DNA of 54,449 nt, taken from an uncultured Acidimicrobiia bacterium (lineage in GTDB: Bacteria; Actinomycetota; Acidimicrobiia; Acidimicrobiales; AC-14). The notes beneath the pieces are model-generated. The model was not told the DNA's origin and did not search any database. It worked only from the letters and a program-made list of their open reading frames with translations. A program made the position numbers and the translations under genes. Positions 19,217 to 34,908 of the stretch are shown here, in pieces (the first letter of the stretch is position 1; each line of letters opens with the position of its first letter). The stretch is taken from contig CAWIIV010000021.1 in the NCBI GenBank assembly GCA_963836205.1, positions 1 through 54,449 on the forward strand, read 5' to 3'.

Positions 19217-19915
19217 CTACGGAGGAGAACCCTCAGGGCCCTCCGTGATACGCGAGAAATACCCTCGGAGACGATCGAGGCAACGGCTGCGGGTGGGGCC
19301 GATGCTACCGATCGGCATGTCGAGGACCGCGGCCACCTCTCGGTAGCTGGGGGCGGGGTCGGCGATGAGGAGCCGAAGCAACCGCTGGCAGGGGCCGGAC
19401 AGCATGCCCATCGCCTGCCACAGGGCCCGGTCACGCTCGGTGGTGAGGACCCCGGTGTCGACGGTGGGCCCGTCGTCGACCAGGGCTTCCTCCCAATCGT
19501 CGTCGCCCGGCGCCTGGCGCCCGGCCTTGCGCAGGATGCGCAGAGACTCGTTGGTCGCGGTGGTGACGAGCCAGGCACCCACCCGTTCCGGGTCACGGAT
19601 ATGGTCGAGGTTCGCCACCAGCCGCATGAACGTGACCTGGAAGACATCGGCGACGTCGTCCTGGTTGAGCCGGAAGGACCGGGGCACCGCCCGCACCCGG
19701 CTGCCGAAGCGCTCGACGAGGGCGTCCCACGCGGCTGAGTCCCCCGCCCTCGCTGCCAACACCAGTTCCGTGTTCGAACGGCCCGACGGTGTCGACACCG
19801 CGACATCGTAGGAGGGTTCCCCCCGGCGACCGGCGGACACAGTCAGACGACGCTCACCACCGTTCCCAGGTCCGAGGGCAGCGCAACGACGGTTTGTCGC
19901 CGTCTCGTCGCTCAC
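19217..19915 (-). CDS. ECF-type sigma-70 factor (start uncertain)
   Basis: GDSAAWDALVERF, DVADVFQ, GAWL (region 2); SYREVAAVLDMPIGSIGPTRSRCL (region 4). Confidence 0.92.
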   Translation of the reverse strand: MSDETATNRRCAALGPGNGGERRLTVSAGRRGEPSYDVAVSTPSGRSNTELVLAARAGDSAAWDALVERFGSRVRAVPRSFRLNQDDVADVFQVTFMRLVANLDHIRDPERVGAWLVTTATNESLRILRKAGRQAPGDDDWEEALVDDGPTVDTGVLTTERDRALWQAMGMLSGPCQRLLRLLIADPAPSYREVAAVLDMPIGSIGPTRSRCLDRLRGYFSRITEGPEGSPP

Positions 19916-19972
19916 CTTCGACCGGAGTCATTCGCCGACCGCCGTGATACATGTTCTCTAACATCTCGGCGC

Positions 19973-22606
19973 GTGCGGCCGCCCGAGATCCTCCAAGAGC
20001 TGGACGACCTGGCCGAGCGCCGCCATCGCGACCCGCCCAGCGTGCTCGCCCGGGCCACCGAGCTGCTGGCCACGTCGGACGACCCGCAGGTCGCGGCCGC
20101 CGCCCACCGGGTCATCGGACTCGCCTTCCACGAGCTCGACCAGCCCCTCGATGCGGTCTCCAGCTTCGCACGGTCGGTGGCGCTCAGCGTCGAGGGTGGG
20201 TTCGCCGACCGGGAGGGCCTGGCCCGGGCGAGCATGGCCATCTCCCTGCTCACGGTGGGCGATACCGAGGGTGCGGAGCGGGAGATGGGGCTGGCCTCGT
20301 CGGTCGCGCCGCCGTCGGTGCGGGGGGTGGTGGAGCTGCTGCGGGGGGTGATGGCGGTGCGCACCGGCCACCTCGAGCGGGGGATGGACGCCTACCGGCG
20401 GGCGTTGCGCTGGCTGGAGGAGACCGGCGACGAGTGCTCGATCGCCCGGGCGCTGCTGTGTCGGGGCGTGGTCCACAGCTGGCAGGGCCACCTCGAGCTG
20501 TCGCTCCACGACTTCGCCGAGGCCGAGCGCATCTCGGTCGAGCGCGACCTGCCCGTCCTGGGTGCCATGTCGGCCCACAACACCGGGGTCGCCTACTGCC
20601 GGCGGGGGAACCTCCCCGACGCGCTGGCCGCCTTCGACCGGGCCCAGCGGGCCTACGAGGCCCTGCACAAGCCGGGCCGGCTCACGGCGGTGCTGGAGGC
20701 CGACCGCAGCGAGGCGCTGATGGTGGCGGGACTGGTGACCGAGGCCCGGGCGTCGGCCGCAGCCGCGGTGGCGACGCTGGAACCCCTCGGCGACCTGCTC
20801 CACCTGGTCGAGGCGCGGATGCTCCTCGCCCGCGCCCTCCTGGCCGGTGGCGCCTACGAGGACGCGGCCGCCGAATCGGCCCGGGCCGCGCGCGAAGCAG
20901 GGGGCGCGCCTCCCCTGGCGGCCCAGGCCCGGTATGTCGAGGTCCAGGCCGAGGTGCTGGCGTTCCAGAATCTGGCCCAGCCGTCACCCGATCTGCTCCG
21001 CCGCACCCGGCGCATCGCATTGGAGCTGGAAGCGCAGGGCTGGCCGGTGGAGGCCCTCCACGTGCGGACGTTCGTCGGCCGGATCGCGCTCGCCCTCGGA
21101 CAGCCGGCGGTGGCCCGGGCCGAGCTGGCCCACGCCGCCGGCGCCCGGACCCGGGGTACTGCCGACCTGCGGGCTCGAGCCTGGCACGCCACCGCCCTCC
21201 TGCGACTGGCCGAGGGTGACCGGCCGGGGGCCAAGCGGGCCCTGTCCCGGGGCATCGCCGTGGTCGACGAGTACCGGGCCACCCTGGGGGCGACCGAGCT
21301 GCGGGCCCACGCGTCAGGCCACGGCATCGACCTGGCCCGCCTCGGCGTCCGCCTGGCCCTGGAGGACGGGCGGCCGGCGGCGGTGATGCGGTGGGCGGAG
21401 CGGGCCCGGGCGGGCGCCCTGCGCCGGCCGGCGGTGCGTCCGCCTGACGACGAGCAGCTGGCCGCCGACCTGGCCGAGCTGCGGCGGGTCCGCACCGAGG
21501 CGCGGGAGGCGGCCATCCAGGGCACCCAGTCCCGCGCCCTCCAGGCCCGGGCGGCGGCGGTGGAGAAGTCGGTCCGCAACCGCACCCGGCGCACGGCCGA
21601 CGCCTTGGGCCGGGACTCGTGGGCCGACACCGGCCAGGTCGACCTGGCGTCGTTGCGGGGCGCCCTCGGCGACCGGGTGCTGGTGGAGTACGTGGCCCTC
21701 GACGGCGTTCTCTACGCCGTCACCGTCACCGGTGTCCGGTCCCACCTCCACCGGCTGGGGTTGGTGGCCGACGTCGACCTCGAGCGCCGCTACCTCCAGT
21801 TCGCCCTGCGCCGGCTGCTGTGGCCGCGGTCGCGGGAGGCGGCCGAGGCCGCGGTGGCGACCACCGCGGCCCGGCTCGACCACCTCCTGCTGACCGGTTT
21901 GCGGCTGCCGGCCGGCGTCCCCCTCGTGATCGTCCCCACGGGGGAGCTCCACGGCCTGCCGTGGTCGACGCTGCCCAGCCTGGCCGGTCGGTCGACCACC
22001 ATCGCCCCCAGCACCGCCCTCTGGCTGGGCGGCGACGGCGGTCGACCGTCGTCGGGAGGGCGGGGGCGGGTGGCGCTGGTGGCGGGGCCGCAGCTGCCCG
22101 GCGCCGAGGCCGAGGTGCGGGAGCTGGCCGCCCTCTACCCGGACGCCATGGTCCTGACCGGTGCGCAGGCCACCGCCGGCCGCGTGATGGCGGCGCTGGA
22201 GGAGGCCGACCTGGTCCACATGGCCGCCCATGGGAGCTTCCGGGCCGACAGCCCCCTGTTCTCGTCGGTGCTGCTGGTCGACGGACCTCTCACCGTCTAC
22301 GACCTCGAACGGGTCCGGCGGGCGCCCTCGGTCGTCGTACTGTCGGCCTGCGAGGCGGCGGTGGCCGCGGTCCACGACGGCGACGAACTGCTCGGCACCG
22401 CCGCCGCCCTGCTGGCCGGGGGCGTGCGGTCGGTGGTCGCGCCCCTCATGCCGGTGCCCGACGCCGCCACCACCGCGGTGATGGTGGCCCTCCACCATCG
22501 ATTGCGGGCGGGCGAGCGCCCGGCGGAAGCGCTGGCCCACGCCGGCGAGGGCCAGGACCGGGCCGCGGCCGCCGCCTTCGTCTGCATCGGCCGCGACGAC
22601 GCCTGA
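19973..22606 (+). CDS. TPR-CHAT (caspase-like) protease
   Basis: N-terminal TPRs; IVPTGELHGLPW, HMAAHG (His), LSACE (Cys). Confidence 0.9.
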   Translation: MRPPEILQELDDLAERRHRDPPSVLARATELLATSDDPQVAAAAHRVIGLAFHELDQPLDAVSSFARSVALSVEGGFADREGLARASMAISLLTVGDTEGAEREMGLASSVAPPSVRGVVELLRGVMAVRTGHLERGMDAYRRALRWLEETGDECSIARALLCRGVVHSWQGHLELSLHDFAEAERISVERDLPVLGAMSAHNTGVAYCRRGNLPDALAAFDRAQRAYEALHKPGRLTAVLEADRSEALMVAGLVTEARASAAAAVATLEPLGDLLHLVEARMLLARALLAGGAYEDAAAESARAAREAGGAPPLAAQARYVEVQAEVLAFQNLAQPSPDLLRRTRRIALELEAQGWPVEALHVRTFVGRIALALGQPAVARAELAHAAGARTRGTADLRARAWHATALLRLAEGDRPGAKRALSRGIAVVDEYRATLGATELRAHASGHGIDLARLGVRLALEDGRPAAVMRWAERARAGALRRPAVRPPDDEQLAADLAELRRVRTEAREAAIQGTQSRALQARAAAVEKSVRNRTRRTADALGRDSWADTGQVDLASLRGALGDRVLVEYVALDGVLYAVTVTGVRSHLHRLGLVADVDLERRYLQFALRRLLWPRSREAAEAAVATTAARLDHLLLTGLRLPAGVPLVIVPTGELHGLPWSTLPSLAGRSTTIAPSTALWLGGDGGRPSSGGRGRVALVAGPQLPGAEAEVRELAALYPDAMVLTGAQATAGRVMAALEEADLVHMAAHGSFRADSPLFSSVLLVDGPLTVYDLERVRRAPSVVVLSACEAAVAAVHDGDELLGTAAALLAGGVRSVVAPLMPVPDAATTAVMVALHHRLRAGERPAEALAHAGEGQDRAAAAAFVCIGRDDA

Positions 22607-22624
22607 CCGTCGCTGGCCCGGTCT

Positions 22625-23077
22625 CTAGGCCAGGACGCGGAGGAGGCGGGTGGCGGCGGCGGGGGCGCCCCTGCGGGTGGCGACGTCGACCGCGACCGAG
22701 AACAGGCGCTCGGCCAGGTCGGGGTCGGTCCAGCAGTGCTCGGCCGCGAAGTCGAGCCAGTCACCCGGTGGGAGGACGGCCTCGCCGCTGTAGTCGAGCT
22801 CCTGCCACGTGGTGGCCAGCTCGAACAGCTCCAGGGCCGCGGTGACGTCGGTGTCGACCCGGGCGAGGAGGTCGTGGTGAGAGGGCGCTTCCCGGGAGAA
22901 GCGGCAGTGACACGCTGGCACCCCCGCGTCTGGCACCCCCGCGTCTGGCACCCCCGCGTCTGGCACCCCCGCGTCTGGCACCGGCCGCCGCGGGCAAATG
23001 GTCTTCGGCACGGCACGCCTCCAGCTCGTACGTGTGTCCGGGCAGCATGCGCCCGGGTGCTTGCACCAGCATTGCAC
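22625..23077 (-). CDS. Hypothetical protein; the 3' ~90 codons look coding, start uncertain
   Basis: LELFELATTWQELDYS...DWLDFAAEHCW segment with GC3 bias; the 5' part is repeat-derived. Confidence 0.5.
   Translation of the reverse strand: MQCWCKHPGACCPDTRTSWRRAVPKTICPRRPVPDAGVPDAGVPDAGVPDAGVPACHCRFSREAPSHHDLLARVDTDVTAALELFELATTWQELDYSGEAVLPPGDWLDFAAEHCWTDPDLAERLFSVAVDVATRRGAPAAATRLLRVLA
22915..22982. repeat. 15-bp tandem repeat x4.5 (CTGGCACCCCCGCGT)
   Basis: Read directly. Confidence 0.95.
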
Positions 23078-23118
23078 GGCCGTGCAACGGCGGGGGCCTC
23101 GTCGTGGGGCCGTGCAAC
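23072..23118. promoter_or_regulatory. Perfect 16-bp palindrome TTGCACGGCCGTGCAA plus a repeated half-site
   Basis: Palindrome at 23072-23087; GGCCGTGCAAC occurs at 23078 and 23108; TTGCAC at 23061. Confidence 0.5.
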
Positions 23119-23125
23119 AATCCGG

Positions 23126-23980
23126 TCAGGCGGGTGAAACGCGGGCGACCTCGACACCCGATCCCGGGCCCAGCCCGGTGGCCAGACCCAGGTGCAGGCC
23201 GTAGGCCAGGTCGGCACCCGACGAGTGGCCCAGCTCGCCGAGGACGGCCAGGTGGACGGCCGCCGCGGGCCCGTCGCCCGCGGCCAGGGCGGCCAGCAGG
23301 TCGTGCACCGGCTCGACGCTCTGGCCCCGGGCGGCCCAGTGGAGGAACGCCCGGGCCACCGACGTGGTGCGCACACCGTCGGCCACCGCCACCAGCCCGT
23401 CCTCCGCCGCGTCGCCGGCGAGGACCCGGGAGACGAGGAGGATCCCGGCCAGGGTGTCGTCGCCCGCGGGGGTGAGGCCCGGCCCCAGTCCGCCGATGGC
23501 CCGGGCCACGCCGGCCAGGTCGCCGTGGTCGAGACGGCGGAGGGCCACGCCGAGGCAGTCGGCGAACAGGGGTCCGGCGAGGGCGGTGGGCGGGGCGCCG
23601 GCGAAGAGGTCGGCGAACCCGGCGCCGCGGTCGTCCGCCGCCGCCAACGCCAACGCCGCCGTCAGCCGGGCCGGGTCAGGAAGCGGTCCCCGCCAGACCC
23701 GGGCTGTCGAGAGGTCGACCGACGTCGCACCAACGCGCAGCTCGCACCCGCCGACCACGTCGACCCGGTCACCGGGCGCCAGCCGGTCGGGCCGCACGAG
23801 GGAGCGGGTGTACAGGGGGCCCCGCCACACGTCGTCTGTGGTCAGGGCGACCAGGCCCGCCGGCAGGCGCACGTACGCCGCCCGCCGGTAGACGGCCACC
23901 ACCTGCCCCCGGCCGTCGAACGCGAGCGCCTCCCGGGCGCCTTCTCCGAGCTCGATCCTGCCCCCGGTGAAGTCGGTCAC
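23126..23980 (-). CDS. ylbF: DUF2877 / YlbF (AllH)-like protein
   Basis: GLGPGLTPAGDDTLAG, TTSVA, GHSSGADL; GTGA-coupled to ylbE. Confidence 0.85.
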   Translation of the reverse strand: MTDFTGGRIELGEGAREALAFDGRGQVVAVYRRAAYVRLPAGLVALTTDDVWRGPLYTRSLVRPDRLAPGDRVDVVGGCELRVGATSVDLSTARVWRGPLPDPARLTAALALAAADDRGAGFADLFAGAPPTALAGPLFADCLGVALRRLDHGDLAGVARAIGGLGPGLTPAGDDTLAGILLVSRVLAGDAAEDGLVAVADGVRTTSVARAFLHWAARGQSVEPVHDLLAALAAGDGPAAAVHLAVLGELGHSSGADLAYGLHLGLATGLGPGSGVEVARVSPA

Positions 23981-25383
23981 CCCAGCCGGCGGTCGAGGTC
24001 GAGCAGGGCGTCGCGGAAGCAGGCCAGGGGGCCGTGGGCGACGCCGGCCCCGATCTGCCCGCCCTCGAGGGCGTGGAGGATCCCCGTGGTCACCTTCGGA
24101 GTGATGCCCAGCTCCACCACCTTGCGCACGTCGACGCCGACCGGGGTTCCCCGGAAGTCGAGGATGGGCAGCTTGAACCGGCTGCTGCGCCCGGCACACA
24201 CCCGGTCCATGTCCTCGGTGGTGGCGGCGGCGTCGGCCATCGTCCCCCCCACGAAGGCGGCCACCGCCGGCGAGCCCGCCGCCGCGCAGCCCCCCAGCCC
24301 GACGAGCTCCAACACGGCCGAATCGCCGATGTCGGGGGCGGCGTCGTCGGGACCGCGGCCGGGGTGGAACAGCGCGTCGCTGACGGGTGGCGAGTCGGTG
24401 ACGAACCACTCGTCCGAGCCGGGCAGGCGCACGCCGTAGGTCGTCCCGTTGCGGGCCATGGTGGTGACCACGCTCGCCCCGTCCACCTGCTCGGCCCACA
24501 GGGTGAGCGACTTGGCCGCGGCCATGCCCAGGTTGAGGAAGAACAGGTGGTTGCCGGCCAGGAAGCGCCCCAGCTCGACCCGACCGCCTTCATTCCCCTT
24601 TGGCGATTCGAGGGCCATGAGCGACGGGAGGAGCGTGCGCAGGAGGAGGTTGGTGGCGCCCTGGGTGCGCATGTGGAGGTCGTCGCCCATCTGCAGGCCC
24701 TGGGCCGCCAGCGAGAAGAGGTCGATCGGGCCAGACCTCCGCAGGCAGTCGGCGAGGAGGGGACCGGCCACGTCGCGGAGGAAGACGAGGCGGTCGACGG
24801 CGGCCGGCGTGTCCCGCCCGAACCAGGCCACCTCCCCTGGGCCCTGGTTGATGGGAGAGAAAGCCCGGGTGCCGCCCGCCTCCATCTCCACCACGAACAC
24901 AGGGGCCGACGGGCCGATGGCGGTGGCCATGGGCACCACCGTGGCGAGGTGGTTGGCCGGCTCCAGGTCGATGTGGCCGTCGGCCCCGTCGTCGTCGGTC
25001 CCGTCGTCGTCGGTCCAGCCCTCGGCCGTCACCGCCGCCCGCACCGAGTTGCGGAGGGGCTCGCCCATGTCGTCCCAGGCGATGGCCGGCCCGCAGTGGA
25101 GGATGGTGTGCTCGCCCATCTCGGGGACGACGTCGCCCGCCCGGGCGATCCCCACCAGCATGGGGACGCCCGTGTCGAGCCGGCGCACGACCTCGGCGTT
25201 GGCCTCGTCGATGGTGGCCGCGTGGCGCCCGTACAACCGGGTCAGCGCCGCCACCAGTTCGAGGTCGCCGCCGGCGGGGATGCGCCAGTCGACGTGGGTG
25301 ACGGGTCGACCCTGGTCGCGGATGGCGTCGGCGAACAGGGGAAGGCCCAGGTTGACGACGGACACCTCGGTGGGGAGCTTCAC
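23977..25383 (-). CDS. ylbE: DUF1116 / YlbE (AllG)-like protein with an N-terminal FdrA-associated small domain
   Basis: VDWRIPAGGD, ILHCGP, MGDDLHMR, FFLNL.MAA.K, MARNG, PDIGDSA, GQIGAG. Confidence 0.88.
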   Translation of the reverse strand: MKLPTEVSVVNLGLPLFADAIRDQGRPVTHVDWRIPAGGDLELVAALTRLYGRHAATIDEANAEVVRRLDTGVPMLVGIARAGDVVPEMGEHTILHCGPAIAWDDMGEPLRNSVRAAVTAEGWTDDDGTDDDGADGHIDLEPANHLATVVPMATAIGPSAPVFVVEMEAGGTRAFSPINQGPGEVAWFGRDTPAAVDRLVFLRDVAGPLLADCLRRSGPIDLFSLAAQGLQMGDDLHMRTQGATNLLLRTLLPSLMALESPKGNEGGRVELGRFLAGNHLFFLNLGMAAAKSLTLWAEQVDGASVVTTMARNGTTYGVRLPGSDEWFVTDSPPVSDALFHPGRGPDDAAPDIGDSAVLELVGLGGCAAAGSPAVAAFVGGTMADAAATTEDMDRVCAGRSSRFKLPILDFRGTPVGVDVRKVVELGITPKVTTGILHALEGGQIGAGVAHGPLACFRDALLDLDRRLG

Positions 25384-26849
25384 GACGCCTCCACTGCCAG
25401 CTTGAGCAGGGCCGCCTCGGCGCAGTCGAACGACGCCCGCCAGCGGTCGGCCTCGGAGTGGAGCCCGGCGGCCGCCGCCCGGCACGACTCGACCATGGCC
25501 GCCACCGCGTCGGGGGCGGCGCCTCCCTGCGCCGAGCGGGTGGACACGATCAGGCGGGGGTCGAGCACGGCCGACAGGTCGTGGCCGGCCAGTCCCAACG
25601 GCCGGCCCTGGTGCTCGATCGACGCGTTGTCGAGCATCTCCCCGGTGATGTCGACCCCCCGCAGCCCCATGGCCGCCGCCGCCCGCACCGTCGCCCCCAC
25701 GATCAGGTAGGCGGTGCGGTAGTCGATGCGGCAGACCTGGACGATGTGCTCGGCCAGGTCGGTGGCCTGGGTGAACCCGGCGGTGAGGGCGTCGGCCATG
25801 CGGTGGGCGTTCACCCGCAGCGTCCCGACCACCCCGCCCATCAGGCGGGTCACGCGGGAGGCCAGATCCAACGCCCGGGGGACCTCGCCGTAGGCGAAGA
25901 TGAGGTTGTCGCTGCGGGCCGACGGGCTCTTGACCACGGCCAGGAAGCCGGACAGGCGGCCGATGAGGATCCCCGACGCCCCCCGCACGATCGACAGCGA
26001 GTACGGGTTGCGCTTGTTCGGCATGAGGACGCTCGACCGGGTGAAGCCGTCGTCGAGGTCGACGTAGTCGAACTCGTTGCTCGACCAGATCTCCAGGTCC
26101 TCGGCCAGCTTGGACTGGTTCGACAGCATGCTGGCGGTGGTGGCCAGGATGTTGATGAGGCCGTCGACCTGCCACATGGCGTCGCGGGTGTGCTCGATGA
26201 CCCCGCCGAAGCCGAGCAGGTCGGCGATCACGGACCGGTCCTCCAGCAGCCGGCTCCCGTTGACGCAGCCGGCGCCCCCGGGCGACGTGTTCACCCACTC
26301 GATGCAGTCGATGAGCCGGGTCGCGTCGCGCACGGTGGGGTAGGCGAAGGACAGGACGTAGTGGCCGAACGTCGACGGCTGGGCCTGCTGGAGGTAGGTC
26401 TGGTCGGGCATGACCGTGTCGACGTGGGCCGCGGCCTGGGCCACCACGCTGTCGACGAACCCGGCGGCGTCGTCGACCAGGCCCACCAGCTGGCGCCGCA
26501 GGAGCAGGCGCAGGGCCAGGCGGGTGGCCTCCCGCCGGGGCCGACCGGCGTGCAGCCAGCCGGCCACGTCGCCCAGGCGGGACACGAAGTAGCGCTCCCG
26601 GGAGTTGTAGGCCTCCCCGAAGGCCGGGTCGTAGGGGAACTCCTCGGCGGGCATGCCGTGGACCGCCACCAGCAGGTCGAGGAGCTGGCGGGCGGCGTCC
26701 TCGGGCACCACCCGCCGTCCCCGCAGGTCGATCACGTGGGCGATATCGGCCAGGTTGAGGCCCTCGTGGAGGAGGGGGGCGTCGGCGTTCTCCAGGGTGA
26801 AGCCGGACTCCACCAGCTCCCGGGCCGGACCCCCGCCGCTCTCGGTCAT
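25380..26849 (-). CDS. Argininosuccinate lyase-like aspartase/fumarase-superfamily enzyme (Xcb-like)
   Basis: LHAGRPR, TYLQQAQP, SSVLMPNKRNP signature, ATDLAE. Confidence 0.85.
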   Translation of the reverse strand: MTESGGGPARELVESGFTLENADAPLLHEGLNLADIAHVIDLRGRRVVPEDAARQLLDLLVAVHGMPAEEFPYDPAFGEAYNSRERYFVSRLGDVAGWLHAGRPRREATRLALRLLLRRQLVGLVDDAAGFVDSVVAQAAAHVDTVMPDQTYLQQAQPSTFGHYVLSFAYPTVRDATRLIDCIEWVNTSPGGAGCVNGSRLLEDRSVIADLLGFGGVIEHTRDAMWQVDGLINILATTASMLSNQSKLAEDLEIWSSNEFDYVDLDDGFTRSSVLMPNKRNPYSLSIVRGASGILIGRLSGFLAVVKSPSARSDNLIFAYGEVPRALDLASRVTRLMGGVVGTLRVNAHRMADALTAGFTQATDLAEHIVQVCRIDYRTAYLIVGATVRAAAAMGLRGVDITGEMLDNASIEHQGRPLGLAGHDLSAVLDPRLIVSTRSAQGGAAPDAVAAMVESCRAAAAGLHSEADRWRASFDCAEAALLKLAVEAS

Positions 26850-26856
26850 GGTCTGG

Positions 26857-27855
26857 TCATTCCTCGAGTCCTCCCGCCAGGTAGTGGGCCGCTCCCAGCA
26901 GGCCACCCGTGTGCCAGAAAACGACCGGGCGCTTCGACGCCGGGTCGAGCAGCCGAAACAGCACGGCCAGGGCCTTGGCCGTGTACACCGGGTCGAGGAC
27001 CAGGCCCTCGGTGCGCAGGGCGACCCGGGCCGCCGACTCGCCGTCGGACGAGGGAAGCCCGTGGCCCGGCCCCCGGGCGTCGGCCAGCTCGAGACCCCCC
27101 CCGGCCGGGGAGGCGACGCCCAGCAGCGCCGCGCAGTCGGCGGCCAGCATCTGCACCTGGGCCGCGATCTCGGCCGCGGGCCGGCTCACCGATGCCCCCA
27201 CCACCCGCCACGAGCGCCCGCACAGCGACGCCCCCAGGGCCAGTCCCGCCCCCGCCCCGCCCGACCCGGTGGCGATGACCACCAGCTCGGGGTCGATGCC
27301 GGCCTCGTCGAGCTGGGCCGCCAGCTCCTGCACGGCCAGCACCATGCCCACCGTCCCCAGGCCGGTGGCGCCGCCCCGGGGCATGGCGAACGGCTTGCGC
27401 CCGCCCGCCTGGAGGGCGTCGGCCACCTCCTTCACCCGGGTGTCGACCGACGAACGGTCGGAGTCGCGGGTGTAGCGGACGACCGCGCCGCAGGCCTGGG
27501 CCACGGCCAGGTTGGGATGGGTCTTCTCCTGTTCGGCCCCGGCGAGCACCAGGTGGCAGTCCAGGCCGGCGGCCGACGCGGCCGCGGCCGCGGCCGCGCA
27601 GAAGTTGGAGCTCGGCCCCCCGCCCGTCACCATGACGTCGCAGCCCTGGTCGAGGGCGGCCCCCACCAGGAACTCGAGCTGGCGGGCCTTGTGGCCGGCC
27701 AACCCGAACCCGGCCAGGTCGTCGCGCTTGACGAAGATCGGCGGACCCCCGAGGGCGTGGGTCATGCGGGACGCCTCGACCAGGGGGGTGGGCAGTGTCG
27801 CCAGGAGCAATCGGGGCAACCGGGCGGCGGTCGCCAGGGCGGGGCTGTCGGTCAC
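26857..27855 (-). CDS. PLP-dependent D-cysteine desulfhydrase/ACC deaminase-family enzyme (XcbE-like)
   Basis: PTPL, VKRDDL...GHKARQLE (PLP Lys), ATGSGG, LDPVYTAK, FWHTGG. Confidence 0.88.
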   Translation of the reverse strand: MTDSPALATAARLPRLLLATLPTPLVEASRMTHALGGPPIFVKRDDLAGFGLAGHKARQLEFLVGAALDQGCDVMVTGGGPSSNFCAAAAAAASAAGLDCHLVLAGAEQEKTHPNLAVAQACGAVVRYTRDSDRSSVDTRVKEVADALQAGGRKPFAMPRGGATGLGTVGMVLAVQELAAQLDEAGIDPELVVIATGSGGAGAGLALGASLCGRSWRVVGASVSRPAAEIAAQVQMLAADCAALLGVASPAGGGLELADARGPGHGLPSSDGESAARVALRTEGLVLDPVYTAKALAVLFRLLDPASKRPVVFWHTGGLLGAAHYLAGGLEE

Positions 27856-27928
27856 GGCGGGTCTCCGTTCGGACTGGTGAACCCCCGCAGTGTCACCCGT
27901 CCGGAGGGCAAGCGCATGGACCACCGCC

Positions 27929-29293
27929 CTATACCCACGTCGCGGACTCGGCGGCGCGGGCGGCGCGACCCCGGGCCACGACCTCGTCGACCATCGCCAC
28001 CGCCCCCTCGAGGGCGGGCGCGGCGAGCGCCTCGGCGGCCTCGGCGGGCGTCAGCAGCCCGGCTTCGACCACCGCGTCCACCAGGGAACGGGGTTTGCCG
28101 CCGGGCCCCGGTGCCAGCGCCCGGTGGAGCGCCTCCTGGGCCCTGAGCCGGCCGAGGCGGGCGGTGAGGACGGCCAGGATCCGCTCCGACCCCGAGTCGG
28201 CGTCGGTGCCGACCCGGGCGGCCATGGCCTCGGCGTCGACTTCCAGGCCGGCGAGCAGGTCGATGGCGGTGCGGAGGGCGGCACCGGTGAGCAGGCAGAC
28301 CTCGGGGAACGCCACCCACTCCGCCTTCCACGCCCGGCCGTCGCGCTCGTGCAGCTGCACCATCCCCTCCAGGAGTACCCCCGCGTGGGCCCGTACCAGC
28401 CGGGCGAGGGTGTCGAGGTGCTCGCTGCGCTCGGGGTTGCGCTTGTGGGGCATGGTGATGCTCCCCACCACGTCGGCCGTGGTCGGTTCCCGCAGCTCCC
28501 CGATCTCCGGACGTTGCAGCTCGAAGATCTCGTTGCCGATGCGGGCCAGGGTGGCCGTCACCATGGCCAGCAGCGAGGCGACCTCGGCCAGCCGGTCCCG
28601 CGACGTCAGCCACGAGATGCCGGGATCGTCGAGGCCCAGCTCCGCGCAGAACGCGGCCCGCAGCGCCGGCCCGTCGGCCCCGAAGAAGCCGAGGACGCCG
28701 ACCGCCCCGCCCAGCTGCCCGACCAGCCACCGGGGGCGACCTTCCCGCAGGCGGTCGAGGTGGCGGCGGACCTCGTCGGCCCACGAGGCGGCCTTGAAGC
28801 CGAACGTGATCGGCGCCCCCGGCTGGCCGTGGGTGCGTCCCACCATCGGTGTGTGGCGGTGGCGCTCGGCCAGGTCGAGGAGCAGACCCTCGACGTGGCG
28901 GAGGTCGCGCCACACCGTGCAGGCCACCTCCCGCAGGGCGAGCACGGTCCAGGTGTCGGTGACGTCCTGCACGGTGACGCCCACGTACACGTGCTCGGCC
29001 ACGCCTTCGGGCAGCACCCGGGCCAAACCCCGGATGAGGCCGAGGGTGGAGTGCGACGTGCGCCGGGTCTCGGCGGCCACGAAGTCGAGGTCCAAGCGGT
29101 CGACGAAGGCCCCCTCGGTGATGGCGTCGGCCGCCTCGACGGGCACGATGCCGAGCTTGGCCTGGGCCCGGGCCAGGGCCGCGAGCACGTCGAGCCAGCC
29201 CTGGAGCCGAGCTCGTTCGTCGAACACGGCCCGCAGCTCGTCCGTCCCCCAGAGGTGGGCGTAGAGCTCGGAGTCGGTTATGCGGGCGCCCAC
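27929..29293 (-). CDS. Adenylosuccinate lyase-like aspartase/fumarase-superfamily enzyme (Xcb-like)
   Basis: TVQDVTDT, GRTHGQ, GQLGGAVG, GSITMPHKRNP, HERD. Confidence 0.88.
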   Translation of the reverse strand: MGARITDSELYAHLWGTDELRAVFDERARLQGWLDVLAALARAQAKLGIVPVEAADAITEGAFVDRLDLDFVAAETRRTSHSTLGLIRGLARVLPEGVAEHVYVGVTVQDVTDTWTVLALREVACTVWRDLRHVEGLLLDLAERHRHTPMVGRTHGQPGAPITFGFKAASWADEVRRHLDRLREGRPRWLVGQLGGAVGVLGFFGADGPALRAAFCAELGLDDPGISWLTSRDRLAEVASLLAMVTATLARIGNEIFELQRPEIGELREPTTADVVGSITMPHKRNPERSEHLDTLARLVRAHAGVLLEGMVQLHERDGRAWKAEWVAFPEVCLLTGAALRTAIDLLAGLEVDAEAMAARVGTDADSGSERILAVLTARLGRLRAQEALHRALAPGPGGKPRSLVDAVVEAGLLTPAEAAEALAAPALEGAVAMVDEVVARGRAARAAESATWV

Positions 29294-30174
29294 GCCGGTT
29301 CCTCGGCCGCCGCCAGCCGGGCGAGGGCCCGTCCCACCAGTTCGAGCGAGGCGCCCCACGGCACCACGGCCACGCCCGGCTCGTCGGCGTTGTGGTCCTC
29401 CAGCAGGCAGCACTTGGTGAGGAGCGGGCCGCCTCCTTCGCCGTCGCCGGCTGGGAACAGGCGCCGGGGGCAGGTGTCGACCGTCTCGGGGACGTCGCCG
29501 TAGAACCACTCGTGGATGGCCCGCGACCTGGCACACCCGAGCAGTGTCCAGTCGGCCCGCTCGGGGTGCTGGTCGAGGAAGTCGACCGAGGCGCTGTCGA
29601 CCTCGATGCCCGACCCCTTGCACGGAAGCAGGTACCGGGCCGACGGCCTCGACCGGGCCAGCTCCACCAGGTCGACCACGTCGGGCACCAGCTCGATGGG
29701 AGGGAGATCCTCGGCCATGGCCAGCACCCGCCGGGCCTGGTCGAGGAGCTTGGCCGGCGCCGGCGGTTCCACGTCGCCCACACGGATGCGGACGGGCCGG
29801 GGGTCGAGGATGAAGCTCACGTGCCGGTAGCGGCCCTCCACCACCACACACCGGGCCGCGGGCGCCTGCTCCCGGGCCACCGCGGCCAGGGACGAGGGGA
29901 TGCCCGTGTCGACGGCGGGGTCGACCACGTAGGCGCACTCGTGGGGGAGGGCGAGGACGTCGACCGCCTTCACCGGGGCGAACAGGGCACCGTCGTCGGG
30001 ATGGTCGACCTCGACCACCGCGGTGGCGCCACCGCCGTTGCGGACCACCACGAACCTGGTGTGGCGGTACACCACCCGTCCGAGGAAGTGGGCGGTGAGC
30101 CCGTCGGCGGTGAGGGGGACGTCGACCGTCGCCACCGACACCTTCCGGTACTGACCGGGCACCAGGTTGGCCAC
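29278..30174 (-). CDS. Cys-rich hypothetical protein in the comA operon
   Basis: GGAGG SD; motifs YLLPCKGSG, LLGCARS..IH, DTCPR, LTKCCLLE. Confidence 0.78.
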   Translation of the reverse strand: MANLVPGQYRKVSVATVDVPLTADGLTAHFLGRVVYRHTRFVVVRNGGGATAVVEVDHPDDGALFAPVKAVDVLALPHECAYVVDPAVDTGIPSSLAAVAREQAPAARCVVVEGRYRHVSFILDPRPVRIRVGDVEPPAPAKLLDQARRVLAMAEDLPPIELVPDVVDLVELARSRPSARYLLPCKGSGIEVDSASVDFLDQHPERADWTLLGCARSRAIHEWFYGDVPETVDTCPRRLFPAGDGEGGGPLLTKCCLLEDHNADEPGVAVVPWGASLELVGRALARLAAAEEPAWAPA

Positions 30175-30185
30175 GCCGCTGCCTC

Positions 30186-30974
30186 CTACCGCCGGGCGGT
30201 GGGAACCGGTACCCGCCCGATCGACAGCTCGATGGTGTCCGCTCGCAGCCCGAGGCGCAACGTCTCCAGGCCCAACACCTCGGCCACCGCGATGTTGGCC
30301 AGGTTGACCTCGGAGCCGAAGCGGCGGATGAACCACGCCTGCTGGTCCTTGCGGGGCGCCTCGAACACCAGCCGCTCCACGCCGCCGGCGGCCACCGCCG
30401 CGGCCAGGACGTCCTCCCGCACGCTCCCGTCGTCGTTGTAGATGCCGACGGTGCCGCTCTCCCGGCCCTCGGTGAGCACCCACCGGGCGCCCGCCGCCAG
30501 GTCGCCGGCGACCTCGTCCGCCCACTGCCCGGGCGGCATGCGGGCGACCCGGCTCTTGGCCCCCACCTCCGACAGGATGGTGAACCCCGACGCCGCCACC
30601 CGGATCAGCTCGTGCTTCTCGTCGACGGTCATCGCCGCCGCCCCCCGGGACACCTCGATGCACGGGAAGCCGGCGCCCGCGGCCCAGTCGAGCAGGTGGT
30701 CGGCCCGGCGCTGGCTCCAGGCCACTTCGAGCAGCGTCCCCCCGAGGCAGCCGAGCACGCCGTGATGGCCGAGGAGGGCGAGCTTGGCCTCCACGTGCGG
30801 GTCGACGTAGGCGGTGCCCCAGCCGAACTTCCACACGTCGACGTAGGCGCCGCACGTCGCCAGCAGGTTGCCGACCTCGGCCGGCGTGAGACCCTTGTCG
30901 AGGACGTGGGTGAGCCCGACGAGGCGGGGCTTGGCCGACCGCTCGGGCAGGTCGAGGGGAAACGGCGCGGTCAT
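30186..30974 (-). CDS. comA: Phosphosulfolactate synthase (ComA/XcbB)
   Basis: KPR..GLTHVLDKG, KFGWGT, GGTLLE, IEVSRG, SEVG.K, EGRESG..G, FEAP.K.QQ, VNLANI, LETLRLGLRADT. Confidence 0.95.
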   Translation of the reverse strand: MTAPFPLDLPERSAKPRLVGLTHVLDKGLTPAEVGNLLATCGAYVDVWKFGWGTAYVDPHVEAKLALLGHHGVLGCLGGTLLEVAWSQRRADHLLDWAAGAGFPCIEVSRGAAAMTVDEKHELIRVAASGFTILSEVGAKSRVARMPPGQWADEVAGDLAAGARWVLTEGRESGTVGIYNDDGSVREDVLAAAVAAGGVERLVFEAPRKDQQAWFIRRFGSEVNLANIAVAEVLGLETLRLGLRADTIELSIGRVPVPTARR

Positions 30975-30995
30975 CGCATCCTATGGTAAAGAGGT

Positions 30996-31011
30996 GTCTA
31001 CTTTAGTGCAA
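30996..31011. promoter_or_regulatory. Putative operator box 2 (GTCTACTTTAGTGCAA)
   Basis: Lies in the 31-bp divergent comA/AIRS-like gap and overlaps the GTG at 31006; 10/16 identical to box 1. Confidence 0.5.
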
Positions 31012-31971
31012 GATATCGAGGCGCTGGCGGCGGCGGTCCGGGCCTTCCCCGGCCTGCGCAACAAGGCTCCCATCGCCATGGTGTCCGAGGTCTTCGGGGC
31101 GACCGACTGGCTCTCGGGACCGGGCGACGACGGCGCCCTGGTCGGAGGCGACCTGGTCGTCGGCGGCGAGGCCATCGCCCCTTCCTTCGTGGCCCACGAC
31201 CCCTTCGGGGCGGGGGTGGCGGCGGTGCTGGCCAACGTCAACGACCTGGCGGCCATGGGGGCGGTGCCGGTGGCCATCGTCGACACCGTGGTGGCGACGG
31301 CCGACGTGGCCCGCCTGGCCCTGGAGGGCATGCGGTACGCGGCCCGCCTGTACGACGTGCCGGTGGTGGGCGGCCACCTCACGTTGCACGACGGGCCGGC
31401 CGCCATCTCCGCCTTCGGCCTGGGTCGGCTGGCGGGAGGGCCGTCGTCGGTGTTGTCGGTGACCCGGGCCGCGGCCGGACAACGCCTGGTGGTGGCCGCC
31501 GTCACCGACGGGACGATGCGGGACGACTTCCCCTTCTTCCGCTCGTTCGACGAGCGCGACATCCTGCTGGCGGGCGACGTGCGCACGCTGGCGTCGGTGG
31601 CCGCGGCCGGGTCGTGCGTGGCGGCCAAGGACGTGAGCATGGCCGGCCTGATCGGCTCGCTGGCCATGCTGCTGGAGGCCAACCGCCTGGGCGTCACCGT
31701 CGGCCTCGACGCCTTGCCGGTGCCGGCCGGGGTCGACCTCACCCGGTGGCTCACGTGCTTCCCGTGCTTCGCCTTCCTCCTGTGCGTCCCCGCCGGCCGG
31801 GAGGACGACTGCCTGGGCGCCTTCCACACCCGGGGGATCTCGGCCGCCGTCGTCGGCACCCTCGACGGGACCGGACAGGTGGCGCTGCGTGGGGGCGGCC
31901 GCACCGCCGTCGTCCTCGACCTAACCTCCGAGACCGTCACCGGCCTGGCGGGCGACAAGGGAGGAACGCAG
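31006..31971 (+). CDS. AIR synthase/SelD/HypE-like protein (sll0787/NitF family); reads in frame into the downstream small domain
   Basis: GPGDDGA, ANVNDLAAMG, VPVVGGH, AAKDVSMAGLIGSL.MLLE, WLTCFP. Confidence 0.85.
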
Positions 31972-32199
31972 GTGAGCCAATCCGACACCGAGGCGCTCCG
32001 GCAGCAGCTCCTGGCCGGCGACGAGCACTTCGCCGCCCTGGCCGCGGAGCACGCCGGTTACGAGGAGCGCCTGGCCGAGCTGCGCGCCCTGCCGTACCCG
32101 ACCGTCGACGAGGAGGTCGAGGAGAAGACCCTCAAGAAGAAGAAGCTCGCCCTCAAGGACGAGATGGAGGTCATCCTCCGCCGCCACGGCGGCGGCTGA
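31972..32199 (+). CDS. DUF465/YdcH-like small coiled-coil protein (own SD, but in frame with the upstream ORF)
   Basis: HFAAL..EH..YEERL...LKKKKLALKDEM; GGAGG lies 7 nt before GTG 31972. Confidence 0.7.
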   Translation: MSQSDTEALRQQLLAGDEHFAALAAEHAGYEERLAELRALPYPTVDEEVEEKTLKKKKLALKDEMEVILRRHGGG

Positions 32200-32231
32200 C
32201 GGCCGGCCGGTGGCCGGAGCGTGAGTCGTGA

Positions 32232-32258
32232 AGTTATGTGGGATATACCGACACAACT
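32232..32258. terminator. AT-rich imperfect hairpin between convergent genes (REP/terminator-like)
   Basis: AGTTATGTGGG-ATATA-CCGACACAACT. Confidence 0.4.
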
Positions 32259-32282
32259 GCACAACCAACGTGCGCGGTCGGG

Positions 32283-32837
32283 TCAGGCGGGGGCGAGGGT
32301 GGCGAGGGCCTGTTGGCAGGCGTCGTCCATGCGGGAGCGGTGATTCGGGGTCGACTGGCAGTTGATCTGGTACTGGATGTCGCCGTCGAAGACGAACGTG
32401 AGGTCGGACTCGCCCTCGGCTGGCGGCTCCACCGGCACGTCGACGTACTGGAAGGCGAAGAATCCCCCGACGGTGGTCCGCTCGCCGGTGACCTCGGTGT
32501 CGACCAGTTCGGTCACCACCCCGTCGAGCTCGACCTGGACGTCGTCGAGGTTGTCCTCGGTGACAGGCGCGGCCAGCTCGTAGCGGCTGATGAAGATGGC
32601 GTTGTCGTCGTCGATCCCGACCCCCTGGTCGGCGGTCGACTCCCCGCCCGCGCTCCGGTCGACCTCGGTGACGTCGCCCAGCCGGAAGTCGGCCGGGTAC
32701 TCGAACGTGATCCCGAAGCGGTCGTCGTCAAACGTGGTGGTGTCGGCCTCGGCGGCCTCGTCGTCGTCGCCACCTCCGCAACCGACCATCAGCAGGACAG
32801 ACACCGCCACCACGAGCAGACGCCGGACCCCAGTCAT
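32283..32837 (-). CDS. Acidic lipoprotein (PsbP-like fold possible)
   Basis: LMVGC lipobox; FGITFEYP; last gene of the radical SAM-GNAT transcript. Confidence 0.75.
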   Translation of the reverse strand: MTGVRRLLVVAVSVLLMVGCGGGDDDEAAEADTTTFDDDRFGITFEYPADFRLGDVTEVDRSAGGESTADQGVGIDDDNAIFISRYELAAPVTEDNLDDVQVELDGVVTELVDTEVTGERTTVGGFFAFQYVDVPVEPPAEGESDLTFVFDGDIQYQINCQSTPNHRSRMDDACQQALATLAPA

Positions 32838-32847
32838 GGCAACGATC

Positions 32848-33324
32848 TTACGGACGGAACGGGCGCAGGTCGATGGCCATGGGCTGGTGGGTGACCCCGA
32901 CGTAGGTCTCCACTTCGCCGTAGGTGTGCCAGCCGATCTTCTCGAAGAAGGCGACGTTGGGCAGTTGGATGTGGGCCACCATCTCCCGCCCGCCCCGGGC
33001 CGCGGCGGTCACCACCGCGAATCGCACGAGGGGCGCCCCCATCCCCAGCCGGAAGCCGGGCAGCACGGCCAGCCGGTCGCCCTGCCACAACCCGTCGGCC
33101 GGGTCGAGTGGAAACAATCGGACGACGCCCACCGCCACCCCGTCGCACAGGCCCAGGGCGTGGACGGTGTCGGGAGCGGCGTCGTGGCTGTCGACGTCGG
33201 ACCCGTCGAACAGCCCCTGCTCCTCCACGAACACCTGGTGACGGATGCGGTGGTGGGTCTCCAGCTCCTCCGGCGTCGCAGCCGGGAAGCAGAGCGCCTT
33301 CCGGCGGACCGGCGTGATCGTCAT
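32848..33324 (-). CDS. MSMEG_0567 N-terminal/Sll0786 (NitE-like) GNAT acetyltransferase
   Basis: HHRIRHQVFVEEQGLF..SD.D, GVVRL, W.GDRLAV, LVRFAV, AHIQ..NV.FF..IGW. Confidence 0.88.
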   Translation of the reverse strand: MTITPVRRKALCFPAATPEELETHHRIRHQVFVEEQGLFDGSDVDSHDAAPDTVHALGLCDGVAVGVVRLFPLDPADGLWQGDRLAVLPGFRLGMGAPLVRFAVVTAAARGGREMVAHIQLPNVAFFEKIGWHTYGEVETYVGVTHQPMAIDLRPFRP

Positions 33325-34475
33325 CGCACGCGGGTGGGGGAGAGGCTCACCGCCGCTGCGGCTGCCGCCCGTTCCATCGACCCCATGGCCGAGCACGCCT
33401 GGCACCGGGCGCAGCCGGCGGCCACCCCTTGCGACCCGAGCCCCCGGGCGGTCAGATAGGGCACCACCTGGCGGTAGATCGTCTCGGTGTACTCGGCCGA
33501 GGGCGGACGGCAGTCCTCCAGCAGCGACCCCGCGATGGGCCGCAGGGGCACCACGAACGGGTAGACACCCATGTCGATGGCCCGCTTGCACCCGGCCACG
33601 GTCAAAGCCGGGTCCTCGCCCATCCCGAGGATCACGTACGTCGACACCTGCCCCTCGCCGAACAACGAGACGGCCCGCGCCCACGCCCCGAAGTACCCCT
33701 CGATCCCCGTGCGGGCCTTGGCCGGGGCGATGCGGGCCAGCACCACCGGGTCGAACGACTCCACGTGGATGCCGACCGAGTCGACGCCCATGTCGTGGAC
33801 CCGGTCGATCACGTCGAGGTGGCCGGGGTCGGGCGGCTCGAACTGCACCTCCACCGGCAGCCCGGCCGCCTCCTTCACCGCCTTGCCGCAGGCGGCCACG
33901 TACAGCGCCCCCTTGTCGACACCGGCAGTGCTGCCCGTCGTCAAGGTCGCGTCGACGGCCCCGTCGAGCTCCTTGGCCGCCACCGCCACCTCGGCCAGCT
34001 GCTCGGGACGCTTCTTGGCGATGGTGCGGCCCCCCGTCAGCGACAGCCCGATCCCGCAGAAGGCGCACTGGTCGTCGTTGCCCCAGTAGGCGCACGTCTG
34101 GAGGACGGTGCTGGCCAGCGAGTCGAGGTGGAGGAGGGCGATCTTCCAGTAGGGGATGCCGTCGGCGGTGGACAGGTCGTAGTAGCGGGGACGGGCGGCG
34201 CCGGTGGCGGCGGCCAGGCGTACGCCGTCGCGCCAGATCCCGAACCCATCGTCCTCCGGGCGCAGGACGTAGGGCGACGAGCGGGCGAAGTCGGTGTCGG
34301 TGGGCACGGTGACGGCCACGCCCTCGATCCAGAGCATCCCCGAGTCGCTGGGACCGGCCCCGCCCCGCCGTCCCTCCAGCCCGCCACCCCGCGCGTCGCC
34401 CAGCTCCAACCGCAGGCCCGCGCTCTGCAGCTCGGTGATGAGGACGGCCAGGTCGCCGGTAGAGGTGGCGGTCAC
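33321..34475 (-). CDS. MSMEG_0568 (NitD-like) radical SAM protein
   Basis: RRGGAGPSD, TADGIPYWKIALLH, LASTVLQTC-x8-CAFC, GVYPFVVPLRP, C-terminal AGCARCQAC. Confidence 0.92.
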   Translation of the reverse strand: MTATSTGDLAVLITELQSAGLRLELGDARGGGLEGRRGGAGPSDSGMLWIEGVAVTVPTDTDFARSSPYVLRPEDDGFGIWRDGVRLAAATGAARPRYYDLSTADGIPYWKIALLHLDSLASTVLQTCAYWGNDDQCAFCGIGLSLTGGRTIAKKRPEQLAEVAVAAKELDGAVDATLTTGSTAGVDKGALYVAACGKAVKEAAGLPVEVQFEPPDPGHLDVIDRVHDMGVDSVGIHVESFDPVVLARIAPAKARTGIEGYFGAWARAVSLFGEGQVSTYVILGMGEDPALTVAGCKRAIDMGVYPFVVPLRPIAGSLLEDCRPPSAEYTETIYRQVVPYLTARGLGSQGVAAGCARCQACSAMGSMERAAAAAAVSLSPTRVR

Positions 34476-34843
34476 GGCGAGACCCCGCCCCGCTTGGCCG
34501 CCAGCTCCCGGTAGACGATCGAGCAGGCCGCCCCCGCGATCATGGACAGGTCGATCACCGTGGCCGTCTCGGGGTCGAACGACGCCAGCCGCTGGGCCAG
34601 CTCCCGAGCCGCGCCGTCGGCCGCGGCCAGGGCCGTCAGGTCGGGACAGGTGGCCCGCAGCTGCTCCGCCACCCGGCCCACCAGCGACACCACCGTCTCG
34701 TACCGCTCGGGCATCACCATGACCACCGGGTAGAGCCGCTCCTCGGCCTGGAACCACCGCCACAGCACCTCCGCGGGCACCTCCGGGTCGCGGAACGGGC
34801 CGGCCCATGGCGTCTGCGGAGAGGGAGCGTCGGTGCCGCTCAT
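34472..34843 (-). CDS. Hypothetical protein, first gene of the radical SAM operon
   Basis: 123 aa; GTGA-coupled to the radical SAM; W..AEERLYP motif. Confidence 0.72.
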   Translation of the reverse strand: MSGTDAPSPQTPWAGPFRDPEVPAEVLWRWFQAEERLYPVVMVMPERYETVVSLVGRVAEQLRATCPDLTALAAADGAARELAQRLASFDPETATVIDLSMIAGAACSIVYRELAAKRGGVSP

Positions 34844-34855
34844 GGCAGGAAAAGC

Positions 34856-34871
34856 CTACACTATGATGGAC
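34856..34871. promoter_or_regulatory. Putative operator box 3 (minus strand GTCCATCATAGTGTAG)
   Basis: In the divergent gap between the radical SAM and carbamate kinase operons; 11/16 identical to box 1. Confidence 0.6.
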
Positions 34872-34908
34872 GTAAATTTCTGATCGTCTCATCCCGGAGG
34901 GGAGACGG

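Follow-up and report, generated by a model that had tools for sequence, protein, structure and literature searches.

The stretch of DNA analysed here, hereafter the window, is the entire 54.4-kb contig C21 (54,449 nt) of a genome from an uncultured, soil-type Acidimicrobiia bacterium, and between positions 25380 and 30974 its minus strand encodes, contiguously and co-oriented, all five Xcb protein families of bacterial coenzyme M (CoM) biosynthesis. We propose, with a probability of about 0.6, that these five genes are a working copy of the CoM pathway and that the CoM they would supply serves a nitrogen-scavenging nitrile and carbamoyl pathway rather than epoxide carboxylation. The operon lies inside a conserved chromosomal supercluster of ~20 genes of nitrile, carbamoyl and Nit1C type, which suggests that CoM is made here for nitrogen scavenging; both the product and its job are what we infer from the genes present and their orthology, from the coupling within the operon, and from conserved synteny and co-occurrence. 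The genome measures 4.05 Mb in 25 contigs (73% GC, 88.6% complete), and its closest public relatives are metagenome-assembled genomes (MAGs) of Acidimicrobiia and other Actinomycetota.

Genes were called from a frame-specific GC3 plot together with open reading frame (ORF) calls, and family scores come from Pfam and NCBIfam profiles. Starting from its first gene, the operon reads as follows:

30186-30974, minus strand: comA/xcbB, phosphosulfolactate synthase of 262 amino acids (PF02679, 257 bits over the full profile)
29278-30174, minus strand: xcbA, Cys-rich DUF7714 protein of 298 amino acids, putative [2Fe-2S] thioaldehyde reductase (PF24830, 303 bits)
27929-29293, minus strand: xcbD, adenylosuccinate-lyase-like homologue of 3-sulfopropionyl-cysteine synthase, aspartase/fumarase superfamily
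26857-27924, minus strand: xcbE, pyridoxal phosphate (PLP) enzyme of the D-cysteine desulfhydrase/ACC deaminase family
25380-26849, minus strand: xcbC, argininosuccinate-lyase-like homologue of the phosphosulfolactate phosphate-eliminating lyase, aspartase/fumarase superfamily
23977-25383, minus strand: allG-like (DUF1116) carbamoyltransferase subunit (PF06545, 216 bits)
23126-23980, minus strand: allH-like (DUF2877) subunit (PF11392, 76 bits)
22625-22921, minus strand: small conserved protein, last gene of the operon

From comA to xcbC the junctions are, in order, an 11-nt gap, a 16-nt overlap in which the GTG start of xcbD precedes the xcbA stop, a 4-nt gap and a 7-nt gap. A GGAGG ribosome-binding site precedes the GTG start of xcbA, and the stop of xcbC overlaps the start of allG by 4 nt (GTGA), as does the stop of allG the start of allH. 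Transcription probably runs as one unit from comA through allH and the small protein; among the 80 related loci described below, 25 encode a homologue of this protein next to xcb genes. On its other side comA is divergent from a sll0787-type AIR-synthase-like gene, with ~20–30 nt between the two. The first-pass annotation of this DNA had marked a closely spaced, co-oriented five-gene operon of Xcb family types, and GC3 plot, ORF calls and family profiles bear this out down to its coordinates; it stopped at xcbC, overlooking the allG/allH continuation and the Nit1C-like, nitrile-hydratase and carbamoyl supercluster around it. In its upstream part the longest ORF for the small last gene consists of a perfect 15-nt tandem repeat (22915-22982, 4.5 copies); translated, this would give PDAGV repeats, so that translation probably starts further downstream, at the GTG at 22921. 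Neither Pfam nor NCBIfam offered a family, even at E≤1, for this protein or for the small proteins at 12329-12649 and 34472-34843. A promoter and terminator scan of 22000-39000, uninformative at such high GC, returned 0 promoter-like sites and five terminator-like sites (2.0 expected), none at the operon ends, and Rfam gave no match within the window.

Xcb enzymes B, C, D, E and A have been shown to turn phosphoenolpyruvate (PEP) and sulfite into CoM, with XcbA a [2Fe-2S] protein of nine cysteines for which that account gives no known homologue (Wu et al. 2022, PMC9457059). Carried over to the window, the scheme would run in five steps: ComA/XcbB would add sulfite to PEP, XcbC would eliminate phosphate to give sulfoacrylate, XcbD would add cysteine, the PLP enzyme XcbE would strip the amino-acid part and decarboxylate to leave sulfoethanethioaldehyde, and the iron-sulfur protein XcbA would reduce this to 2-mercaptoethanesulfonate, that is, CoM. 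We compared the window with reference clusters from Xanthobacter Py2 (pXAUT01), Nocardioides JS614 (pNOCA01), Mycolicibacterium chubuense NBB4 and Methylocystis iwaonis (plasmid pSS37A-Re-1). The five window proteins are 45–55% identical to those of JS614 and 33–44% to those of Py2, and their gene order is that of JS614. XcbA passes its curated NCBIfam cut-off with ease (NF052538, 336 bits against 150), and ComA, 51% identical to JS614 ComA, scores 233 bits with TIGR03849 (cut-off 280). With the XcbC model (NF052535, cut-off 575) the window protein reaches 423 bits, compared with 642 for Py2, 378 for JS614 and 396 for NBB4; with the XcbD model (NF052536, cut-off 600), 575 bits, as does the Py2 copy, and JS614 reaches 695; with the XcbE model (NF052537, cut-off 450), 302 bits, next to 315 for JS614, 328 for NBB4 and 221 for CuyA. 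Because proteins of known CoM users also lie under these cut-offs, the thresholds appear too strict for actinobacterial members, and a score below them does not exclude membership.

The tree of the two lyases points the same way. A quick maximum-likelihood tree (LG+G4, SH-aLRT support, 65 rows) was built with 26 XcbC and 28 XcbD sequences, the Xcb rows coming from the window and 28 loci chosen among 83 (L029-L111), together with six ArgH and four PurB from the window's own genome and its relatives and a further lyase as outgroup. Left out were two PurB loci (L122 and L123, no tblastn match at 1e-30) and the split XcbD of NBB4. The window lyases fall inside the XcbC clade (SH-aLRT 99) and the XcbD clade (99), separate from ArgH (100) and PurB (96). 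The reference lyases from alkene-linked clusters are placed outside the Nit1C-linked set in this tree, for which the program warned of long branches in the Py2 rows.

In XcbA, five cysteines (C185, C214, C235, C255 and C256) are invariant in 33 diverse DUF7714 proteins and also present in the XcbA of Py2, JS614, NBB4 and Methylocystis. The AF2 model of the window XcbA has a pLDDT of 95, and the fold found no counterpart among solved structures: a Foldseek search of the PDB was empty at E≤1e-3 (best TM ~0.2), a wide VIA-align search with residues 126–297 gave generic alpha/beta matches only (Z≤6.9, with HypD at Z 5.4 in the noise range), and a PDB sequence search gave no relative (best E 0.11). 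Ten DUF7714 proteins considered as possible fusions were scanned, and the second domain in all five that have one is a partial ComA or Lyase_1, as encoded by the adjoining genes, so that we read them as gene-call read-through. In three related genomes (G001:C7, G006:C11 and G016:C9; L019, L020, L017 and L018) XcbA is matched as two pieces that adjoin each other, the result of either a frameshift or an assembly error.

A prosaic alternative is that the two lyases are housekeeping argH and purB that happen to stand beside unrelated genes. Their best general family matches are indeed to these models (268 bits for XcbC with argH, 252 bits for XcbD with purB), and the nearest solved chains to XcbC in the PDB sequence search are argininosuccinate lyases. 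Both scores are below the model cut-offs (279.5 for argH), and the genome has its own argH on contig C14 (527 bits) and its own purB on contig C24 (462 bits). Among five relatives tested, the two with XcbA have two matches per lyase model and the three without it have one. The separate copies and the tree support of 96 to 100 refute this alternative, and its probability is negligible. The lyases had been expected in the first-pass annotation to be mislabelled by automated pipelines, an expectation that holds for the Methylocystis homologues, which RefSeq names ‘argininosuccinate lyase’ and ‘adenylosuccinate lyase family protein’. We see in this a systematic annotation gap, in which XcbC, XcbD and XcbE of this kind fall under the NCBIfam cut-offs and are labelled ArgH/PurB-type lyases.

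The setting of the known bacterial pathway would suggest another alternative, ordinary alkene or epoxide metabolism with etnE/xecA and a monooxygenase encoded in the unassembled 11% of the genome. Neither the EtnE/XecA fold (PF01717) nor a di-iron monooxygenase (PF02332) gave a match in the window, as the first-pass annotation had noted, or in the rest of the 88.6%-complete genome, and tblastn queries with JS614 EtnE, Py2 XecA and the alpha ORFs of both monooxygenases were likewise without a match there at E≤1e-3. In positive controls PF02332 was detected on 3/3 alkene-oxidiser plasmids and PF01717 on 2/3, with EtnE missed on the third, so that the PF01717 hidden Markov model test is imperfect when taken alone; given the completeness of the genome, the status of etnE/xecA and the monooxygenase is ‘not found’ rather than ‘absent’. 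Two further points speak against an alkene role: five additional XcbA-bearing genomes of the phylum have no di-iron monooxygenase match (0/5), and the xcb genes of alkene oxidisers adjoin etn or xec genes on plasmids, unlike the conserved chromosomal Nit1C context seen here. We therefore consider hidden alkene metabolism very improbable. The suggestion that this is a CoM operon with a new role is supported, and all three refutation tests named in the first-pass annotation (grouping of the lyases, separate argH and purB, etnE/xecA elsewhere in the genome) were run without one coming out against it; that CoM is the product and has this new role is what the genomic context would imply.

The context itself consists of two halves. 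The first adjoins the operon:

30994-32199, plus strand: sll0787-family AIR-synthase-like protein with a C-terminal DUF465 (TIGR04049, 226 bits; cut-off 321)
32848-33405, minus strand: MSMEG_0567-type GNAT (TIGR04045, 96.7 bits; cut-off 68)
33321-34475, minus strand: MSMEG_0568-family radical SAM protein (TIGR04043, 379 bits; cut-off 304)
34472-34843, minus strand: conserved hypothetical protein upstream of the radical SAM gene, in 17 of the 80 loci
34909-35895, plus strand: carbamate kinase (NF009007, 289 bits; cut-off 266)
35892-37466, plus strand: FdrA/AllF-like protein (NF004760, 377 bits, below the cut-off of 433)
37376-38623, plus strand: MSMEG_0565-family glycosyltransferase (TIGR04047, 369 bits; cut-off 260)

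The second half lies ~10 kb from the xcb operon:

10268-10885, minus strand: XRE-cupin regulator
10972-12327: single-Cys flavoprotein resembling CoA-disulfide reductase (Cdr-like)
12329-12649: small hypothetical protein
12659-13147: MSMEG_0572/Sll0783 protein (212 bits; cut-off 110)
13105-14857: Co-type nitrile hydratase beta, alpha and accessory genes
14901-15239: OsmC

Radical SAM protein, GNAT, glycosyltransferase and MSMEG_0572 protein all score over their own NCBIfam cut-offs. The AIR-synthase-like protein is a relative below the cut-off of the sll0787 family and is not fused to GNAT; its second-best NCBIfam match is methanogenesis marker protein 2 (153 bits), and its nearest solved chains are ThiL (1e-5) and then HypE (3e-4), a weak second best. 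The DUF465 extension occupies residues 388–436 of its longest ORF. Homologues of AllF (FdrA), AllG, AllH and carbamate kinase are all present, and the E. coli AllFGH is reported to be an oxamic transcarbamylase (PMC11326118). The nitrile hydratase alpha subunit contains a ten-residue segment (letters not shown), and its best matches are Co-type nitrile hydratases; a reading of the enzyme as thiocyanate hydrolase was rejected, as the alpha subunit is nearer to Co-type nitrile hydratases (E 1e-88 to 1e-70) than to the thiocyanate hydrolase gamma subunit (1e-46). A Nit6803-type nitrilase, sought with the Methylocystis query by tblastn at E≤1e-5, was not found in the genome, where the Co-type nitrile hydratase is present instead.

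The Cdr-like flavoprotein links this second half to the CoM genes of alkene oxidisers. Over 435 residues it shares 32% identity with the FAD oxidoreductase encoded next to JS614 comA, and it is 28% identical to Py2 Xaut_5065; a homologous flavoprotein stands beside the xcb genes in JS614, NBB4 and Py2, and a single active-site Cys motif is common to all. The solved structures most closely related to it are those of NADH oxidases, CoA-persulfide reductase and CoA-disulfide reductases, and the etn literature, as cited in PMC8727900, names the gene CoA-disulfide reductase and proposes a reductive role. On these comparisons we take the protein for a candidate CoM-disulfide reductase or CoM-adduct reductase.

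The halves are separated in this genus and adjacent in another genome (G018, L023); in G002 they lie on separate contigs and both are retained. Between them (15245-22606) the window encodes a DinB/TIGR03086 protein, RibD_C, an ECF-type sigma factor and an 877-amino-acid TPR-CHAT protein, and at 16946-17013 a perfect 17-nt repeat in four copies marks the edge of ~1.7 kb (16.9–18.6 kb) with no coding frame in the GC3-based caller. Beyond the first half, a ~1576-amino-acid ORF (38680-43410) contains beta-helix and Ig-like (Cep192/HYDIN-type) domains; its product is probably a surface protein, the gene call being uncertain on account of competing antisense frames. Further on, the stretch from 48000 to 52000 has a G+C content of 58–60%, against ~73% elsewhere, and contains AAA_16/ORC-CDC6-like and STAND-like ATPase ORFs; it may be foreign DNA.

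How often the CoM genes keep this company was assessed across a collection of species genomes, in which at least 541 XcbA relatives were confirmed among 595 candidate stretches. The locus search was built on an alignment of ten closer sequences, and the best 80 loci were kept (52–86% identity), with neighbours counted by tblastn (E≤1e-10, ≥50% coverage) within 10 kb. XcbD accompanies XcbA in 79 of these loci, ComA in 77, and XcbC and XcbE in 67 each. The commonest neighbours outside the pathway are OsmC (58), GNAT (56), the AIR-synthase-like protein (49) and the Cdr-like flavoprotein (48), followed by AllG (46), MSMEG_0572 (45), FdrA (40), carbamate kinase (39), radical SAM (39), glycosyltransferase (36) and nitrile hydratase alpha or beta (12). 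Of the 80 loci, 69 carry one or more Nit1C markers and 52 a carbamoyl-module gene, and the gene set persists while its order is shuffled between lineages. Taxa with XcbA loci include Acidimicrobiia, many Pseudonocardia, Nocardioides, Nonomuraea, Planosporangium, Dormibacterota and one Bacillota-labelled MAG. In one Microbacteriaceae MAG (L106) a lone XcbA homologue sits between a small Cdr-associated gene and MSMEG_0572, with no comA, xcbD, xcbE or xcbC within 10 kb.

Among 41 relatives, the window's own genome included, XcbA is found in nine and a radical SAM protein over cut-off in ten, and all nine XcbA genomes have the radical SAM protein; these tallies include one unpublished genome (G008) and would be eight and nine of 40 without it. 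The one genome with the radical SAM protein only (G019) has a canonical Nit1C locus and no xcb, AllFGH, carbamate kinase, Cdr-like or OsmC gene within 10 kb of it. In an even sample of the phylum XcbA occurs in 5 of 200 other genomes, all of one family, and four of these five have the radical SAM protein.

Taken with this setting, CoM would be the thiol cofactor or carrier of a nitrogen-scavenging route made up of the nitrile-hydrating enzyme, the carbamoyltransferase and carbamate kinase, and the flavoprotein would keep it reduced or free it from an adduct. The neighbour counts can also be read more modestly: CoM could be a low-molecular-weight redox thiol only, protective in nitrogen stress and without direct part in nitrile or carbamoyl chemistry, with the OsmC peroxidase reduced by CoM and the flavoprotein acting as CoM-disulfide reductase. 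OsmC is the most frequent neighbour outside the pathway, the Cdr-like flavoprotein shares with CoA-disulfide, persulfide and NADH peroxidase enzymes a single Cys at the active site, and the same flavoprotein type stands beside xcb genes in alkene oxidisers. The patchy distribution of the cluster (9/41 relatives and 5/200 in the phylum sample) is unlike that of a general redox buffer, and the translational coupling of xcbC to allG/allH ties it to the carbamoyl module, not to the peroxidase; a purely protective thiol thus seems improbable.

Somewhat less easily set aside, though still unlikely, is the idea that the operon yields another sulfonate, such as 3-sulfopropionyl-cysteine, or a CoM-derived unit rather than free CoM, which the glycosyltransferase, GNAT, AIR-synthase-like and radical SAM proteins would build into a small molecule, for example a thiol glycoside or a sulfonated natural product. 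The Nit1C core does look biosynthetic, with its GNAT, ATP-grasping PurM-family and radical SAM enzymes and a GT4 glycosyltransferase weakly like MshA (93 bits) and BshA (63 bits), and this idea would also accommodate the Xcb scores under the curated cut-offs, the divergence of XcbE and the four related clusters that lack xcbE. Against it, all five genes are kept, including the final reductase gene xcbA with its invariant cysteines, and the scores are on a par with those of known CoM users. Canonical Nit1C clusters, such as that of G019 from the same family, work without xcb, which indicates that the Nit1C product does not require the sulfonate as a building block.

Several points weigh against a CoM pathway serving nitrogen scavenging, the reading that we prefer. 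XcbC, XcbD and XcbE of the window are all under the curated NCBIfam cut-offs for Xcb proteins, and XcbE is the most divergent of the five (45% identity to JS614, 35% to Methylocystis). In four of the 80 loci (L049, L075, L078 and L103) xcbC directly follows xcbD with no xcbE between them, so that the end product may differ among clusters; the PLP step in these loci may be encoded elsewhere or missing. Eleven of the 80 loci have no Nit1C marker, seven of them shorter than 12.1 kb and two more at a contig end, and L078, at full length, offers only carbamoyl, nitrile hydratase and OsmC genes. With at least 541 loci to draw from, keeping the 80 best matches biases the sample toward close relatives, related genomes are non-independent observations, and the genome of the window is itself incomplete. 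Among the sequencing runs listed for 23126-32199 there was no RNA run, and the DNA runs all covered small shares.

A bolder version, speculative and in our judgement doubtful, would make CoM a covalent, recyclable carrier through which the cell would gain usable nitrogen and ATP from cyanide or from a nitrile-level carbon. In such a cycle CoM disulfide, or an activated CoM sulfur, would capture cyanide as S-cyano-CoM (2-thiocyanatoethanesulfonate); the Co-type nitrile hydratase would hydrate this to S-carbamoyl-CoM; the AllFGH-like enzyme would phosphorolyse it to carbamoyl phosphate and free CoM; carbamate kinase would then yield ATP, NH3 and CO2; and the single-Cys flavoprotein would reset the redox state of CoM. 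The AIR-synthase-like protein could run a thiocarbamate/thiocyanate interconversion of the HypE type. The cycle would fit the parts list; the nitrile hydratase looks like an ordinary Co-type enzyme, and the HypE match is weak. If it were true, it would give CoM a new cofactor role and assign a chemistry to an orphan cluster of Nit1C type.

The pathway itself is already known; here it stands complete in another, conserved genomic setting. In the few bacterial strains concerned, CoM has so far been associated with alkene and epoxide metabolism, a role described in PMC9457059, and the present setting points to an unrecognised job for this rare cofactor. A literature search limited to accessible papers returned none linking Xcb or phosphosulfolactate genes to Nit1C, nitrilase or nitrile hydratase; the supplements of Wu et al. 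2022 may contain a distribution analysis. If CoM is made by these clusters, bacteria would have a second and far more widespread CoM function, and the long-orphan Nit1C nitrogen-starvation and cyanide cluster would gain its first chemically defined partner. XcbA was confirmed in the genomes of at least 541 species, and among the carriers are strains in culture from Pseudonocardia, Nocardioides, Nonomuraea, Planosporangium and Methylocystis, which makes the prediction directly testable at the bench. Pseudonocardia sulfidoxydans NBRC 16205, P. thermophila DSM 43832, P. spinosispora DSM 44797, Nocardioides guangzhouensis, Planosporangium flavigriseum and Methylocystis iwaonis SS37A-Re are such carriers.

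Compared with the window, the Py2 xcbABCDE genes belong to the same five families, keep the five XcbA cysteines and have lyases in the same clades; they differ from the window in their level of sequence identity and in gene order, and they stand on a plasmid beside epoxide carboxylase (xec), whereas the neighbours in the window are of carbamoyl and Nit1C-like type and neither xec nor alkene monooxygenase genes turned up. In JS614 and NBB4 the xcb genes lie beside etn genes in the order comA-xcbA-xcbD-xcbE-xcbC, as in the window, with similar NCBIfam scores and an adjoining single-Cys flavoprotein homologue, but these clusters are plasmid-borne and flanked by alkene monooxygenase, CoA-transferase and short-chain dehydrogenase/reductase (SDR) genes, unlike the chromosomal cluster of the window. 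With the nitrogen-starvation and cyanide-assimilation cluster known as Nit1C (MSMEG_0565-0572, sll0783-0787) the window has in common the radical SAM protein, GNAT, glycosyltransferase, MSMEG_0572 and a relative of sll0787; it differs in having a nitrile hydratase, not a Nit6803 nitrilase, and in the added xcb, AllFGH/carbamate kinase, Cdr-like and OsmC genes, none of which occurs at the canonical Nit1C locus of the same family (G019). The E. coli AllFGH and carbamate kinase (PMC11326118) have their counterparts in the window, spread there over two divergent operons, with allG/allH joined to the CoM operon and no allantoin context. On Methylocystis iwaonis pSS37A-Re-1 the genes xcbB-A-D-E-C immediately adjoin a canonical Nit1C set, with homologues of the radical SAM, GNAT, AIR-synthase-like, glycosyltransferase, MSMEG_0572, DUF1116/AllG, FdrA-like, OsmC and cupin-regulator proteins; this cluster is proteobacterial, and so from another phylum, lies on a plasmid, and in place of the nitrile hydratase encodes a Nit6803 nitrilase and a Pnap_2097 protein.

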